DNA from: Tequatrovirus BCH953P4
DNA: 64,000 nt
Direction: 5' to 3' (one strand)
Sequence record: OZ035789.1
Shown: positions 1 through 33,465 of the stretch, piece after piece
How the letters are laid out: the number at the start of each line of letters is the position of its first letter
How positions within the stretch are numbered: position 1 is the stretch's first letter
Notes under the pieces: model-generated
Seen by the model: only the letters and a program-made list of their open reading frames with translations
Database searches by the model: none
What the model was told of the DNA's origin: nothing
Made by a program: the position numbers and the translations under genes

Positions 1-675
1 GGTAGAATCAGCTTCAAGAGCTACCACATAATTCGCGTGTTCACCTTCAAATTTAGCAGCACCTTGTTTACCTTTTGCCCAGAGCAGAAGTTTATAATTT
101 CCTGGTTGCATTTTCATATTTGCCATATTGATAATGAAATTAAATGTATTTTCACCATCATAATCACCAAGAGTCAAAGAATATTTAACACGGGTCAGAG
201 CAGAATCTTCTACTTTATTAAAACCGTTAATTACGATTTTACCTTCTTTTACTGTGATAGCAATTGTATCAATCTGCAGACCGCGAGATACACGCAACAG
301 CTGTTGAAGGTCTTCAGCTTTAATTTCGGTAACAACAGATGCTACCGGGAATGGAATTGGTTTATTAGGAGCAACTACTGTACTCGGATCGGCTGCTGGC
401 CAAAAAATTGTTGAGCGAGCATCAGCAATTTTAATATTTCCATCTTCTGATTGCGAAATTTCTGCATCATCATTAACTAGAGACAGAATACCGAGAAAAC
501 CGTTCAAATCGTAAATTGCTACATCAAAATCAATAACGTCAGAAATATTTGCTTCCGCATAAGTTGTACCATTAACTGCGCGAGTCATAATAAATTGACC
601 GGATTTAAGCATAATACCGGAGTTAATAGTAGCGAAATTTTTCAAAATATTCAGTGTGTCTTTAGATAATTTCAT
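1..675 (-). CDS. 45: Sliding clamp gp45 (DNA polymerase processivity factor); last few codons lie beyond window start
   Basis: Minus-strand ATG at 675-673 translates [14 protein letters not shown]..., matching remembered T4 gp45 N-terminus; reading frame open to position 1. Confidence 0.85.
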   Translation of the reverse strand, partial: MKLSKDTLNILKNFATINSGIMLKSGQFIMTRAVNGTTYAEANISDVIDFDVAIYDLNGFLGILSLVNDDAEISQSEDGNIKIADARSTIFWPAADPSTVVAPNKPIPFPVASVVTEIKAEDLQQLLRVSRGLQIDTIAITVKEGKIVINGFNKVEDSALTRVKYSLTLGDYDGENTFNFIINMANMKMQPGNYKLLLWAKGKQGAAKFEGEHANYVVALEADST

Positions 676-1559
676 TTCAATTTCCTATTTACATAATAGT
701 TAGACCAGGACCGTACAGCACCCTGATAAGATTCGTCGTTAAACCCATTAGCTACTGCAATTTTACGAAATTTATTATAACTCGGTTTTCCGTAAGCATG
801 CCATAAAGATTTTAATTCATCTTCATGTTCAATCCAAGTTCCTCTAGCTTTAGATTTTCTAAATTTTGATTTGAATTCCGGTGAATTATTTCTAACAGTT
901 GCTTGAATTGAAGCCCTCTGTCTTCTTTCAGCATTATTCCATAACTCTTTTTGAGATTTAGAAATTTTTGATTTTACACTTTCTGAATTCATTATATCAC
1001 TAAACTTTTTAGCATAACTACAATCAAGATATTTCAATTTCATCTTATTTGAAAGTTTAAGCTTTTTCTCATCGGTCCAGTGATTCTTCATTGAATTAGA
1101 TATTTTGTATTTTACGTCAGAACTATGTTTGTAACCTTTACGAATACCAACATAATCGGGCGTAATTTCAGATTGCGAAAGCTTTACAATTTTTCCAGTT
1201 AAAACATTTTTATATGTTCCATATCCTTTAGCGCCAATTAAAGTATTTTCATCTGCGTATGCTTTATTAAAATATTTTATATTACTTTTTGCTTTAACTT
1301 TTAATTGAAAAAATCTTTCCAATTTTCTTGGATCTAATATAGTTTCAGCTAAAATTTTGACGGTATATTTAGTGGTTTTAATAAGCTCAAAATATTCATC
1401 GCTATAACTCGATGACACGCTTCCAGTATAAATCTTTCCAGCTGAATCAATTATATTTGTTCCATCGAAAATTGCGTCAATTTTCGAACCTATATAATAA
1501 CATGGAAAAATATTTTTAGCTTCCCGCTCTGGAAAGCTAATAAGATATACTAAATTCAT
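672..1559 (-). CDS. Putative free-standing GIY-YIG homing endonuclease (seg-like), 295 aa
   Basis: N-terminal LVYLIS...YYIGSK resembles GIY-YIG motif; lysine-rich C-terminal repeats resemble NUMOD3-type DNA-binding modules; ATGA start/stop overlaps with rpbA and gene 45. Confidence 0.55.
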
Positions 1560-1954: not shown

Positions 1955-2146
1955 TTAGTCATAATAATCAGTGACAGTCCAAGCTTCATTTCTATTGGAC
2001 ATTATTTTTGTATATTCTGCTTTAAATGCATTCCTAAGCATAGATTCAGTAACTATATGCTCTTCATTAGAAAAATTATTTCTCAGAATATATCGTTTTA
2101 TTTCAGGAATAGTTAATAGATGCTGTCCGGTTGAATATTCTGCCAC
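1955..2146 (-). CDS. 45.2: Small early protein, 45.2-like, 63 aa, GTG start
   Basis: ORF track; GTG start preceded by GGAGGAA Shine-Dalgarno; positional equivalent of T4 45.2. Confidence 0.45.
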   Translation of the reverse strand: MAEYSTGQHLLTIPEIKRYILRNNFSNEEHIVTESMLRNAFKAEYTKIMSNRNEAWTVTDYYD

Positions 2147-2156
2147 AATTCCTCCG

Positions 2157-2164
2157 TATAAATA
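2157..2164 (+). promoter_or_regulatory. Late promoter -10 element TATAAATA
   Basis: Exact TATAAATA about 33 nt upstream of the plus-strand HNH endonuclease ATG at 2198, followed by AAAAGGA Shine-Dalgarno. Confidence 0.55.
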
Positions 2165-2197
2165 TGTTTATCACTCGCTGTATCAAAAGGATATGTT

Positions 2198-2914
2198 ATG
2201 AATTATAAACTAATTTATGAAAAGTTAATCTCTAATGCTAAATCTCGAAAACTTGATTGCTATACTGAATCTCATCACATTATACCACGCTGTTTAAATG
2301 GCAGCGATGATGCTTCAAACTTAGTAGATTTAACACCAGAAGAGCACTATGTAGCTCATCAACTTTTAGTAAAAATTTATCCTTCTGAACCAAAATTAGT
2401 ATATGCTGCTAACATGATGACAGTTTCCACGAAATACGCTAAACGCAACAATAAAACTTTCGGTTGGATTCGTCGTAAACTCTGGGAAATAGAAAAGAAC
2501 AAAGAATTCTCCCAGGAGACACGAAAGAAAATGTCTGATGCAGTAGCTAATAAAGCAAGACTAACTTGTCCTCATTGCGGTAAGTCTGGATTAAGCGGGA
2601 ATATGAATCGTTGGCATTTTGATAACTGCCCAAATCACCCTAATCCTAAAGTTAGACCACCAATGTCTAAAGAACACAGAAATAATATCTCAAACGGGCT
2701 TAAAGCAATCGTTCTTGAAGAAACATCTTGCGAATTCTGCGGAATGATAGGCAAGAAATGCGTTATCGCAGCGCATAGAAATTTCTGCAAGAAAAATCCA
2801 AATGGACGCAAGAAAACTGAAAAGACTGGTACTTGCGTCCATTGTGGTAAAGTTACCACTTTCGGAAATTTATCAAGATGGCATAATGATAACTGTAAAT
2901 ATAAACCTAGCTAA
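2198..2914 (+). CDS. HNH homing endonuclease, mob family, 238 aa, with three tandem Cys-rich zinc-finger-like repeats
   Basis: HHIIPRCLNGSDDASNLVDLTPEEHYVAH motif nearly identical to the mobB-like ORF at 7496-8290; repeats CPHCGK...WHFDNC, CEFCGM...HRNFC, CVHCGK...WHNDNC; opposite strand to flanking early genes. Confidence 0.8.
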   Translation: MNYKLIYEKLISNAKSRKLDCYTESHHIIPRCLNGSDDASNLVDLTPEEHYVAHQLLVKIYPSEPKLVYAANMMTVSTKYAKRNNKTFGWIRRKLWEIEKNKEFSQETRKKMSDAVANKARLTCPHCGKSGLSGNMNRWHFDNCPNHPNPKVRPPMSKEHRNNISNGLKAIVLEETSCEFCGMIGKKCVIAAHRNFCKKNPNGRKKTEKTGTCVHCGKVTTFGNLSRWHNDNCKYKPS

Positions 2915-4595
2915 TCTTAGCTAAACTAAATCTACCAACTTTTTCCATCTGAATATGCTGACCATATTCTTGTGGGTCATGGTCTTTATGCGAAATTATG
3001 AAGAAGTTGGTATCCTTCAAACCATCTAAAATTTTAGCTACATTTTTAATACCTTCAGCATCAAATGCACCGTCATACACTTCATCAAGAAATAAACAAC
3101 TTATTTTAACACCTGAAACTTTTTCAGCAATATCACGCCAAGTAAATAAAAGAGCAATATCAATTCGTGCTTTTTCACCTTGACTGAATGAAGCATAACT
3201 AAAATCTTCACGACCACGGGATTTAATTGTCTCATTAAATTCTTCATCTAATGTAAACACATAATCCGCTTCCATTATTTTAAGATAATGGTTAATCTGC
3301 TTATTAAATAATGGAATGTACTTTTTAATAATAGCACCTTTAATACCAGAATCTTTGAGCATATCAGTCAAAATTCCTCGGTGGTATTTTTCCATTACTA
3401 AATTAGTTTTTGTCTTAACAATTTTATCAAGTTCTTCTTGAAGCAGTGCTATTTCATCAGCATGGTCAATAAACTCAGAAGATGCTTTTTCTATAGCCGC
3501 TTTAACCTTTTTAGCTTTATCTACTGCTGCGATCAAAGATTGCTTTTTATTGCGAATATCATTTGCCAACGACTGTTGGGTTTTAATATTATCTCGGTAT
3601 TCATCAACAAGAACTTTTAAATTATCACGATGTGTTGAAAGCTGTTCAAACGAATGCGTACATTCAGAAACTTTATCTTTAATTTTAGAAACAACTTTAT
3701 CACCGGAACTCAATTGTGACAAACAGGTTGGACATAATCCACCTTCGTGATACATATTAATGACTTTATTATACGAGTCAATTTTTGATTTAATTAAAAA
3801 TGCTTCTTGACCGATTTTATTAAATGCATCAGTTGGGTCTTCGTCTAAAACAATATTAACTAATCTTTCATTAGCTTCTTCTATTTCCGATTTTAGCGTT
3901 CTAGCTTCTTTTGCCAAATCATCATACATATTTTGCAGACGAGTAAGGTTGTCACCCGTTAATTTTTTCTGGCGTTCAACGTTATCATTATATATTTTAA
4001 TTTGTTGGATAATACTATCTTTTTTAACATCAAGCACTTGGTTCTGCGAATTTAATTCGCGTATTAGTGCTTTATTAAGCTTATCCATTTCAGCTAATGT
4101 TCCTACCTCAAGCAGGTCTTCCACAAGCTTTCTTCGCGCAGGGGTCGACAAACCCATGAAAGGGGTATACCCTGCTGTACCAAGGACAACAATCTGCTTG
4201 AAACTGGCATATGACATTCCGATAAGCTGTTCAAATTCTGCTTGGAAATCTTTACTGCTGGCAGATTCATTAAGACGTGTACCGTTAACGGTGATTTCGA
4301 AAACGTTTGGTTTTTGTCCTCTTTTGATATAGTACTTTTTCTCATCATATTCCATCCACAGTTCAACTAAAAGTTCTTTCTTATTTGTGCTGTTTATTAA
4401 TTGACCTTTCTTTACATCACGAAATGGCTTGCCAAAAAGCCCAAACGTGATGGCTTCTAGCATAGTAGACTTACCACCGCCATTTCGTCCAGTAATAAGA
4501 GTTTTTTGAACCTTATCTAATTGAATGTCAATCCCATTTTGACCAACTGACATTATATTTTTATATTTTACTCTATTAAGTTTAAAATTCTTCAC
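2907..4595 (-). CDS. 46: Recombination nuclease ATPase subunit gp46 (Rad50/SbcC-like), 562 aa, GTG start
   Basis: Walker A GRNGGGKST near N-terminus, long coiled-coil middle, CPTC zinc hook-like motif; AAGGAA Shine-Dalgarno before GTG; size matches T4 gp46. Confidence 0.9.
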   Translation of the reverse strand: MKNFKLNRVKYKNIMSVGQNGIDIQLDKVQKTLITGRNGGGKSTMLEAITFGLFGKPFRDVKKGQLINSTNKKELLVELWMEYDEKKYYIKRGQKPNVFEITVNGTRLNESASSKDFQAEFEQLIGMSYASFKQIVVLGTAGYTPFMGLSTPARRKLVEDLLEVGTLAEMDKLNKALIRELNSQNQVLDVKKDSIIQQIKIYNDNVERQKKLTGDNLTRLQNMYDDLAKEARTLKSEIEEANERLVNIVLDEDPTDAFNKIGQEAFLIKSKIDSYNKVINMYHEGGLCPTCLSQLSSGDKVVSKIKDKVSECTHSFEQLSTHRDNLKVLVDEYRDNIKTQQSLANDIRNKKQSLIAAVDKAKKVKAAIEKASSEFIDHADEIALLQEELDKIVKTKTNLVMEKYHRGILTDMLKDSGIKGAIIKKYIPLFNKQINHYLKIMEADYVFTLDEEFNETIKSRGREDFSYASFSQGEKARIDIALLFTWRDIAEKVSGVKISCLFLDEVYDGAFDAEGIKNVAKILDGLKDTNFFIISHKDHDPQEYGQHIQMEKVGRFSLAKIS

Positions 4596-4807
4596 AAAAG
4601 ATTCCTTTTAATGTATCTTTTAGACCATTCTATCATATCATCATAATCTAAAAAGTATTCATCAAATTCAGCCATGCAAACAACACCTTGCGCTGTTTTT
4701 GATGTGATATAAATTATTCCAACATATCTAGAATCTTCTTCGGTATAATTAATGTTTGCTATGAATTCATCATTAATGTCAAATGTCGAAAACTTCACAG
4801 TATGCAT
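4592..4807 (-). CDS. Hypothetical protein (46.1 position), start refined to internal ATG
   Basis: ORF track 4592-4855 begins at a non-ATG codon and overlaps the next ORF; internal Met 17 is an ATG at 4807. Confidence 0.4.
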   Translation of the reverse strand: MHTVKFSTFDINDEFIANINYTEEDSRYVGIIYITSKTAQGVVCMAEFDEYFLDYDDMIEWSKRYIKRNLL

Positions 4808-7495: not shown

Positions 7496-8290
7496 CTACG
7501 AATAGGCCCAAACATATCCATAAGCAATTTTGCTTTTTCCAGATATACACTTTTTAATATTAGACATGCATCCTTTAACGGATACAGCTGCGTCTTTAAT
7601 TTTAGGAAATACTCGTAATAATTTTCCAGTAGTATCATATTGAAATACTGGCACATTTCTTTTCTGAGTTATCCCACGTTTAGATTTAGACATTTTTTGT
7701 TTAGTTGCATTAGACATCCTAGAGGGCTTTCCTATGTTATCAGAATAATAATATTTCCATTGAAATCCTCCAGCGGTTTTCCTTTTCCCATCTACACATT
7801 GTTTAATTGAACTTGAACAGCTATATGACATATCTTCTGCAGCATCTGTAATACATCTATATTTGCGAATAAAATTTCCATTTAAATCATATTGATAAAT
7901 TGGTTTTCCAGCATTTCGTCTAGCGTTAGACATGTATTTTTTATTATCATCATCTTTCCAGAACTCTTTCATGCCTTCCGATATTGAGGAAGATACAGCT
8001 GTTTTAATCCATCCATACATTTTATTATTTAGTCTTGTTCCGTCAGAACTATAACACATCATACGAATAGCTAAAGCCAATTTAGGAAGTCTATAAATTT
8101 TAAATAATAATAAATGCGCGGTAAAATGTTCTTCTGGTGTCAAAAGAACTAAATTAGTTTTATCATCTGTACCACCCATACATCTAGGAATTATATGATG
8201 AGTTTCAGTATAGTATGTCAAAAGACTTTTATCATTGCCTCTGTTTAGTCCTTTTTCGATCAGTAAATTATATATGTTTAAATAATTCAT
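7496..8290 (-). CDS. mobB: HNH homing endonuclease, MobB-like, 264 aa
   Basis: THHIIPRCMGGTDDKTNLVLLTPEEHFTAH HNH motif; basic C-terminal half; T4 mobB position next to a-gt. Confidence 0.75.
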   Translation of the reverse strand: MNYLNIYNLLIEKGLNRGNDKSLLTYYTETHHIIPRCMGGTDDKTNLVLLTPEEHFTAHLLLFKIYRLPKLALAIRMMCYSSDGTRLNNKMYGWIKTAVSSSISEGMKEFWKDDDNKKYMSNARRNAGKPIYQYDLNGNFIRKYRCITDAAEDMSYSCSSSIKQCVDGKRKTAGGFQWKYYYSDNIGKPSRMSNATKQKMSKSKRGITQKRNVPVFQYDTTGKLLRVFPKIKDAAVSVKGCMSNIKKCISGKSKIAYGYVWAYS

Positions 8291-32980: not shown

Positions 32981-33465
32981 TTACTATTGCAACAGTACTG
33001 TACAGTGTCAATATGAGCATCATAAATCTTATCCATATCAGGAGATTTGACAGGCTCATCAATTATATACAAAATTCGCGAAAGCGATAAACCTCTGAAC
33101 TTGCTTCCTTTATTACCAATAAAACTGCGCACAGAATCAGTAAATAAACGAAAACGTATATCATCATTAGAATAACGCGAAAATTCCTTTTTAATGTCAT
33201 CTGCGGAATTTTTAGCATAAACTGAAGTATTAGAAAGAACAATAACTGTTCCGCCATCATACAACCAGTTAGCAGCGAAGTTAGTCACAGCAATTGATTT
33301 ACCGGATTGACGTCCACCATCTATACGAAGTGTGCAGTACTGTTTAAGTAAGTCTTCAAATGATAGGATATAATCGTTTTTACAAATTTCTTCTACTCTA
33401 GCATCAGAATGGTGTGTAAAAGCATTCATCAGGGATAGATAAGGACCAGTTAAAAATGTTCTCAT
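32926..33465 (-). CDS. P-loop-containing protein, 179 aa
   Basis: GGRQSGKS Walker A-like motif. Confidence 0.5.
   Translation of the reverse strand: MRTFLTGPYLSLMNAFTHHSDARVEEICKNDYILSFEDLLKQYCTLRIDGGRQSGKSIAVTNFAANWLYDGGTVIVLSNTSVYAKNSADDIKKEFSRYSNDDIRFRLFTDSVRSFIGNKGSKFRGLSLSRILYIIDEPVKSPDMDKIYDAHIDTVQYCCNSKCCIGGITRPQFFVIGMQ

Follow-up and report, generated by a model that had tools for sequence, protein, structure and literature searches.

A probable Mob-class HNH homing endonuclease gene with three putative zinc fingers beside gene 46 of Tequatrovirus BCH953P4

The window analyzed here (64,000 nucleotides of Tequatrovirus BCH953P4; OZ035789.1) carries, between genes 45.2 and 46, an open reading frame (ORF) that most probably specifies an intact, active, and late-expressed homing endonuclease of the T-even "Mob" class, which would target the 3′ part of gene 46 in phages without the endonuclease gene; we assign this reading a probability of roughly 0.8. 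Homing is supported by the presence/absence polymorphism of the gene, its sharp cassette boundaries, the complete linkage of a flanking allele, and fidelity to the site across genera, all of them read from genome comparisons. The predicted protein architecture, i.e., an N-terminal HNH domain, a short helical linker, and C-terminal C2HC fingers, matches that of T4 MobE, with three fingers instead of one. This is an ordinary selfish gene of a known kind, another copy of the gene catalogued in phages RB32 and RB51. What is added here are the exact boundaries of the cassette, the complete linkage of its flank, an architecture of the MobE and not the MobB type, the expansion to three fingers, and the finding that the gene keeps to the gene 46 site in different genera.

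The ORF, its HNH domain, and its relationship to MobE

The ORF (238 amino acids [aa]; positions 2198..2914, plus strand) encodes a putative free-standing HNH homing endonuclease of the MobE type, the counterpart of RB32ORF054w. Every other long ORF between 1 and 10 kb of the window lies on the minus strand, including the two neighbors, gene 45.2 (1955..2146) and gene 46 (2907..4595). The ORF and gene 46 are convergent, tail to tail, and share 8 nt (2907..2914; CTAGCTAA) that contain the stop codons of both genes. The initial annotation had described a 238-aa plus-strand ORF among minus-strand genes, its 8-nt overlap with the gene 46 3′ end, and an exact late promoter motif upstream (TATAAATA at 2157-2164). 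All three descriptions proved accurate, position 2157 being the start of the promoter motif and not of the ORF. The adjoining gene 46 is itself a recombination gene.

The first 100 residues (2198..2497, plus strand) make up a predicted HNH (beta-beta-alpha-metal) nuclease domain with the motif residues H26, H27, N41, H50, and H54. These residues, along with E24, are invariant across 54 relatives. The protein matched PHROG 655 ("homing endonuclease") with an E value of 8.6e-69. Its own score against Pfam HNH was 16.9 bits, below the 21.4 cut-off, and 32 of the 54 aligned relatives matched that model at E ≤ 0.01. A single-sequence PDB search with the 238-aa protein returned no significant match; with the family profile, solved HNH structures were retrieved from EcoKMcrA (E 4.5e-4), Cas8f-HNH, IscB, and a group II intron maturase, and each alignment covered the HNH motif. 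Profile searches, which the initial annotation had proposed as a check, thus detected the HNH domain. The AlphaFold prediction made from the family alignment (pLDDT 93.5) shows a beta-beta-alpha nuclease core, with strands at residues 24-27 and 42-45 and a helix at 47-60, followed by three hairpin-plus-helix modules. A beta-beta-alpha-metal core with its His...Asn...His residues places the protein, as predicted from its sequence, in the HNH/His-Me finger superfamily.

The remainder of the protein holds three putative zinc modules with the spacing C-x2-C-x11/12-H-x3-C, all on the plus strand. Finger 1 (2558..2629; C124, C127, H140, and C144) is modeled as a beta-hairpin followed by a helix. Finger 2 (2720..2788; C178, C181, H193, and C197) has the spacing C-x2-C-x11-H-x3-C and is devoid of the WHxDNC signature. 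Finger 3 (2825..2896; C213, C216, H229, and C233) is common to the whole family, including T4 MobE, and its ligands are invariant in 54 of 54 relatives; all twelve putative ligands are invariant in 23 orthologues. The initial annotation had read three CxxCG...WH(F/N)DNC modules. Three C-C-H-C modules are indeed present and modules 1 and 3 read CxxCG...RWH(F/N)DNC, but module 2 is CEFCG...AHRNFC. DSSP assigned a hairpin plus helix to each module in both the whole-protein and the fingers-only models, and in these models each module shows the ligand spacing and topology of a classical beta-beta-alpha (C2H2-like) finger. The Foldseek lists obtained with either model were dominated by C2H2 arrays (CTCF, Tramtrack, and ZFP568) and also held TRAF fingers and HNH domains, with no significant match (best E values, 0.012 to 0.016; nothing below 0.01). 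Pfam zf-C2H2 was matched by one relative only (E 0.0058), the other Pfam zinc matches being to generic zinc-ribbon models below threshold. The array resembles classical C2H2 arrays of the TFIIIA/CTCF type in its C-x2-C-x12-H-x3-(H/C) spacing, modeled hairpin-plus-helix topology, and tandem layout. It differs from them in that the last ligand is Cys and the inter-finger linkers are ∼30 to 35 aa long, contain an extra helix, and are not TGEKP-like.

Among characterized enzymes, T4 MobE shares this layout. The two proteins are 35 to 36% identical over their full length; each begins with an HNH domain containing the same invariant residues, continues through a basic helical linker, and ends in a CPHCGK...RWH(F/Y)D(N/K)CK finger (RWHYDKCK in MobE). 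Both genes are free-standing, occupy an intergenic site adjacent to a conserved gene of DNA metabolism, and occur sporadically. A C-terminal zinc finger has been noted in Mob-class enzymes (PMC10448857). The 238-aa protein displays features of the MobE type, namely, an N-terminal HNH domain plus a C-terminal CCHC finger, encoded by a sporadic free-standing intergenic gene with a co-inherited flank. Nonetheless, MobE and most of its relatives carry NUMOD3-like repeats where the window protein has fingers 1 and 2, and mobE sits between nrdA and nrdB and targets nrdB, whereas the presumed target of the window protein is gene 46. Furthermore, mobE lacks its own promoter and is cotranscribed with nrdA (PMC2790892), whereas the window gene lies on the opposite strand from its neighbors and has its own late-promoter motif. 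MobE is an experimentally proven nickase and mobile element that nicks T2 nrdB and exhibits HNH-dependent high-frequency inheritance (PMC2790892). Nicking and homing are experimentally established for MobE, whereas for the window protein they are predicted.

The similarity that the initial annotation had drawn between the N terminus and the MobB-like protein encoded at 7496..8290 was borne out (44% identity over 126 aa; E 6e-30), but it spans the HNH domain only. T4 MobB has a C-terminal half with two NUMOD1 domains (Pfam E 9.5e-25) and no zinc finger; a Pfam search found no NUMOD1 in the 238-aa protein, which sets it apart from the MobB type. Since the MobE layout is shared and MobB shares the HNH domain only, we classify the protein as MobE type. 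RB32ORF054w was annotated in RB32 in 2006 as "homing endonuclease, similar to mobB," a name that RB51 also uses. By these alignments, the likeness to mobB holds for the nuclease domain only, whole-protein architecture being MobE-like. The RB32 and RB51 copies occupy the same site and encode 98 to 100% identical proteins, with essentially no difference from the window gene. The Lw1 "MobE-like endonuclease" and the Karamvirus/Slopekvirus copies are 36 to 44% identical, at the same site and in the same orientation. Dozens of records label the gene "homing endonuclease," and its equivalent is counted in a published inventory as one of two "mob-like HNH" genes of RB32 (PMC2993671). Its annotation in RB32, RB51, and Lw1 and its count in homing endonuclease inventories make it an already known gene of low novelty. 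No experimental study of this enzyme turned up in a literature search.

The cassette, the linked gene 46 allele, and their distribution

Pairwise BLAST and junction alignment with T4 delimited a cassette at 2141..2926, in which 786 nt take the place of 72 nt of T4 (NC_000866 33244-33315). What is lost from T4 comprises the 45.2 start codon (ATG), the whole 55-nt intergenic region, and the final 14 nt of gene 46. In T4, the 55-nt gap between 45.2 (ending at 33246) and gene 46 (starting at 33302) is gene-free, in agreement with the statement in the initial annotation that T4 has no gene at this site. On the 45.2 side, the cassette remodels the start of the gene to GTG-Ala (ATG in T4), while the GGAGG ribosome-binding site is kept at 2151-2155, back to back with the late promoter of the endonuclease gene. 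On the other side, it supplies the last ∼5 aa of gp46 (SLAKIS versus TVMV in T4). To the left of the cassette, positions 1800-2140 share 99.4% identity with T4. From 2927, identity to T4 drops to 92, 75, and 86% per consecutive 100 nt and then reaches 100% from ∼3200, which delineates an endonuclease-linked gene 46 3′ allele of ∼245 nt (2927..3170, minus strand). Beyond this diverged tract, the backbone is 99 to 100% T4-like on both sides. The lack of a diverged tract on the 45.2 side suggests that the cut would fall toward gene 46. Encoded at this end of the gene are the Walker B, D-loop, and H-loop motifs of a Rad50/SbcC-like ATPase. Compared with T4, this region has 15 synonymous and 18 nonsynonymous codon differences of 102, with the H-loop core nearly unchanged.

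Linkage was assessed with a 701-nt probe spanning the ORF end and gene 46, which matched 596 phage records. The 58 records with at least 95% identity correspond to the 58 carriers of the gene; carriers among the matches listed were all at least 96.7% identical, whereas the best empty-site record reached 92.7% and 442 empty-site records fell in the 90 to 95% band. The gene 46 3′ allele is therefore completely linked to gene presence, being shared by 58 of 58 carrier records and 0 of ∼442 empty-site Tequatrovirus records. This pattern fits a co-converted tract, of which it is not proof. Within the tract, a 114-nt segment (2997-3110) exists as three alleles (carrier, T4 type, and RB18 type) that are 65 to 76% identical to one another. 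The segment is hypervariable even among empty-site phages (68% identity between the T4 and RB18 types), so its divergence is not due to the endonuclease gene alone. Positions 3111-3170 are common to carriers and RB18-type phages, and from 3171 all three types are at least 95% identical. The possibility that the F2-type endonuclease allele left its footprint in the RB18-type gene 46 allele was also examined, but an identity of 70%, against 68% to the T4 type, gave no signal. Farther into gene 46, at 3500-3599 and 4500-4599, the window matches T4, whereas the carriers RB32, REP2, and Ozark match AR1/RB18, indicating that the cassette sits on several backbones.

Of ∼500 Tequatrovirus records matching the 3′ end of gene 46 with at least 90% identity, 58 (∼1 in 9) have the endonuclease gene. 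The site is empty in T4, RB3, RB18, AR1, and others, ∼88% of relatives being without the gene. The gene 46 probe and a finger-region protein probe identified the same 58 carrier records, and near-full-length protein matches were likewise found in 58 records. Direct comparison of five natural carrier copies revealed 6 to 14 synonymous versus 0 to 3 nonsynonymous codon differences and no stops in the ORF, a bias that shows strong purifying selection at the codon level. The record of phage Ac3, whose copy lies within a recoded, GC-rich block, was left out of the comparisons, and the metadata of the T4_ev240 record contained nothing pointing to experimental transfer.

The finger-region protein probe matched 171 phage records, with one copy each, from hosts that include Escherichia, Klebsiella, Cronobacter, Enterobacter, Yersinia, and Serratia; the three-finger relatives are 36 to 64% identical to the window protein. 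Among the matches listed, gene 46 is the annotated neighbor in most, and the rest name the endonuclease gene only or are unannotated. In every context checked, spanning several Tevenvirinae genera, three-finger relatives lie beside gene 46. These positions mark the three-finger lineage as specific to the 45.2/46 site. Orthologues from IMG/VR contig L003 (64% protein identity), Yersinia phage MHG19 (63%), Escherichia phage F2 (Tequatrovirus; 58%), metagenomic P0020 (48%), L004 to L006 (44%), and P0023 (42%) all lie between 45.2 and 46 and are convergent with 46, as in the window. The same-site orthologues in several genera are 237 to 247 aa long, and endonuclease divergence tracks that of gp46 (64% versus 70%; 44% versus 44%). 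A scan of IMG/VR for near-identical copies found none, the best match being 64%; the GenBank phage collection proved the productive source of records. The initial annotation had put forward a strain-specific mobile insertion and a comparison of the 45.2-46 junction across T-even genomes as a check. That comparison revealed that the ORF is not universal, as it would be if it were not mobile. Mobility is thus supported (58 of ∼500 records; empty in T4), whereas restriction to one strain does not. By its distribution, the gene is not strain-specific but part of an old lineage that keeps to the 45.2/46 site in several genera.

Transcription signals

The T4-type late promoter motif at 2157-2164 (plus strand) is an exact match located 34 nt upstream of the ATG and the sole plus-strand copy within the first 45 kb of the window. 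The whole window has 13 copies of the motif, which is not above the 10.8 ± 3.0 expected by chance. However, the motif recurs 41 to 53 nt upstream of the ATG in the same-site orthologues L003, MHG19, and F2 (proteins 57 to 64% identical), with CTAAATA in its place in the 44% orthologues, and it is this recurrence, rather than the count in the window, that supports a late-promoter function. The endonuclease gene is thus predicted to have a late promoter of its own with a conserved motif. A Shine-Dalgarno sequence, AAGGA (2187-2191, plus strand), is placed 6 nt before the ATG and is conserved in the aligned leaders. An RNA hairpin covering the ribosome-binding site, as in mobE, was sought in the leader. 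The consensus fold of four orthologous leaders yielded only −0.7 kcal/mol, arguing against a conserved leader RNA structure. The leader was likewise discarded as a mimic of the homing site (i.e., an operator, as with I-TevI), for its best ungapped match to the T4 empty-site region was 15/20, a score that ∼30% of shuffles reach. An orientation opposite to that of the flanking conserved genes is also found in T4 segD (PMC2988022). That gene, in contrast, belongs to the GIY-YIG family and has no identifiable promoter of its own, whereas the window gene has its conserved late-promoter motif. A late promoter of its own and an opposite orientation make the gene a convenient natural case of the integration of an endonuclease gene into the phage transcription program.

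The cassette also removes from the T4 intergenic region the sequence TGCTTTA-N12-TATAAT, a MotA-dependent middle-promoter pattern upstream of 45.2. A compensating middle promoter inside the cassette was rejected: a MotA-like motif at 2707 (minus strand) is absent from all 42 to 64% orthologues and may be a chance occurrence. Early/middle transcripts running from gene 46 into 45.2 must traverse the entire endonuclease ORF antisense. After the ORF, no plus-strand terminator-like hairpin was found before 3529-3579, so that late transcripts could run on into gene 46, antisense to it, for ∼620 to 670 nt. The interference with gene 46 transcripts that the initial annotation suggested is plausible, and a review raises such interference as a general possibility (PMC2988022).

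Homing and alternative explanations

The genomic context exhibits the features expected of intronless homing: the empty T4 site, the sharp cassette edges, and the fully linked flanking allele. Free-standing endonucleases cut a conserved neighboring gene, and double-strand-break repair copies them in together with flanking DNA (PMC2988022). MobA and MobE both nick their targets (PMC2988022). In the mechanism that we propose, the gene would be transcribed late from its own promoter, against the surrounding early/middle genes. In a mixed infection with a phage having an empty junction, the finger array may bind within or adjacent to the 3′ end of gene 46, within the segment from Walker B to the H-loop, where the HNH domain would nick or cut, by analogy with MobE and MobA. 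T4 recombination-dependent repair would then copy into the cut genome both the endonuclease gene and ∼170 to 270 nt of adjoining gene 46 sequence from the donor, and the carrier would be spared self-cleavage by its diverged gene 46 3′ allele and remodeled junction. The presumed target is the gene for a Rad50-like nuclease subunit; gp46/gp47 are given only as possible contributors to the end resection needed for homing (PMC2988022).

A different history would have the gene resident at the 45.2/46 site since before the Tevenvirinae genera split, with its patchiness caused by repeated loss and the nuclease kept for some benefit to the phage, such as cutting the genomes of competitors, stimulating recombination, or acting against defense systems or satellites. 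The parallel divergence of endonuclease and gp46, the same site, orientation, and near-equal length in several genera, and the strong purifying selection all speak for such vertical residence. There are also precedents for useful descendants: odn derived from a homing-endonuclease gene in phages (PMC10448857), and SegB is reported to amplify anti-defense loci (PMC13096335). Nevertheless, a near-identical cassette (at least 96.7%) occurs on differing Tequatrovirus backbones, with a sharply bounded foreign flank in otherwise 99 to 100% identical DNA, which indicates recent horizontal spread by recombination and not loss alone. Moreover, precise loss would need to recreate the T4 intergenic region with its middle-promoter motif, and the cutting of competitors and homing are mechanistically the same act. 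We therefore consider this history improbable.

Less likely still is that the gene is a decaying or inactive relic, unable to cut DNA and kept by linkage only. T4 does have defunct endonucleases, such as I-TevIII (PMC2790892), and the Pfam HNH score of the window protein is below threshold, but its catalytic-motif residues and twelve zinc ligands are invariant in orthologues down to 38 to 42% identity. The five intact carrier copies with their excess of synonymous changes, the near-full-length matches in the 58 records, and the confident structural model also argue against decay. Finally, the main role of the unit could be that of a late RNA antisense to gene 46 or to the 46-45.2 transcript, with the protein being secondary. 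This would accord with the convergent orientation and conserved late-promoter motif, the stretch free of plus-strand terminator-like hairpins, the removal of the MotA-type motif, and the fact that antisense transcripts can arise from endonuclease genes oriented against their neighbors, segD being the T4 example (PMC2988022). An RNA-only role, however, does not require strong purifying selection on the protein, which argues against antisense RNA as the main function. The leader is also free of conserved RNA structure, and T4 and ∼88% of its relatives do without the unit. We give this last explanation hardly any credence, and an active homing endonuclease remains the preferred reading.

For that endonuclease, the triple C2HC array is a compact candidate module for DNA recognition on glucosyl-hydroxymethylcytosine DNA. 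Classical zinc fingers read the major groove, which in T-even DNA is glucosyl-hydroxymethylated. The characterized T4 endonucleases bind the minor groove (PMC2988022), and a tension remains between these two modes of reading. Tentatively, and with rather low confidence, the three-finger array can be viewed as a natural modular "zinc-finger nickase." Modules would have been swapped within one HNH family (NUMOD3 repeats versus one, two, or three C2HC fingers), and the three-finger version would recognize the stretch of gene 46 that codes for Walker B to the H-loop. At least four Tevenvirinae genera would have retained this pairing, which would drive an arms race visible as the three diverged alleles of the 114-nt segment in genomes that are otherwise near-identical. 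If so, the number and sequence of the fingers would map onto the target, and the protein would provide a compact scaffold of phage origin for reading heavily modified DNA.

Leader and promoter motifs at the insertion site

The motif TATAAATA, a T4-type late promoter sequence, is followed on the plus strand by a non-coding leader (window 2165-2197) of the HNH homing endonuclease gene, which we compared with the aligned leaders of its orthologues in an IMG/VR contig (L003), Yersinia phage MHG19, and Escherichia phage F2. The leader is strongly conserved among these orthologues despite protein identities of 57 to 64%, with the shared pattern TTTATC...GCTGT(A/G)TC(A/G)AA(T)AAGGA. No conserved RNA fold was found in the aligned leaders, and similarity of the leader to the empty-site sequence was not significant. 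On the opposite strand, the T4 46/45.2 intergenic region carries a sequence of the middle-promoter pattern, TGCTTTA-N12-TATAAT (T4 locus L001, 8263-8288, minus strand), which is deleted by the HNH cassette (window 2141-2926). A similar middle-promoter-like motif lies antisense within the HNH open reading frame (ORF), at window 2707 on the minus strand, and is restricted to RB32-type copies.

Allelic variation in gene 46 and an anomalous record

A 114-nt segment of gene 46 (window 2997-3110, codons ∼496-533), encoding the stretch of gp46 from the Walker B/D-loop to the H-loop, occurs as three alleles (the type of phages carrying the HNH gene, the T4 type, and the RB18 type) with mutual identities of just 65 to 76%. 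Both flanks of this segment are 95 to 100% identical between genomes. Phages devoid of the HNH endonuclease gene hold two of the three alleles.

The GenBank record of phage Ac3 (OK040907) contains an anomalous block (L088, 3001-6000) that takes in both the HNH gene and gene 46 and extends somewhat beyond them. Its GC content is 44 to 50%, against 31 to 37% in the surroundings, and its codons are those preferred by E. coli; the encoded proteins are 98 to 99% identical to those of the window, whereas the DNA is only ∼75% identical. This block of the public record appears to be recoded or synthetic sequence.

Other endonuclease-like genes

The only HNH-domain paralogue of the HNH gene in the window is a T4-type mobB (7496-8290, minus strand), which encodes an HNH domain (22.6 bits) and two NUMOD1 domains (E = 9.5e-25) and occupies its usual location between a-gt and gene 55. 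The gene 46/47 neighborhood of relatives is an endonuclease gene hot spot: phage N2 has an additional one between 46 and 46.1 (L086, 5612-6466), the 5′ end of 46 is the site of a MobD-like gene in phage F2 (L084, 4889-5711), and phage REP2 has an HNH gene adjoining 47 (L087, 6238-6702).

The window has a second endonuclease-like ORF, 295 aa long, inserted at the rpbA/gene 45 junction (672-1559, minus strand). It matches phrog_7504 (E = 3.4e-17) and phrog_655 (E = 3e-32), and no Pfam nuclease domain was detected in it at E < 1. The ORF replaces the T4 rpbA-45 intergenic stretch, including its MotA-type promoter motif (L001, 7658, minus strand), and is covered in only 2 of 597 matching phage records, those of Escherichia phage N2 and Salmonella phage F13076.
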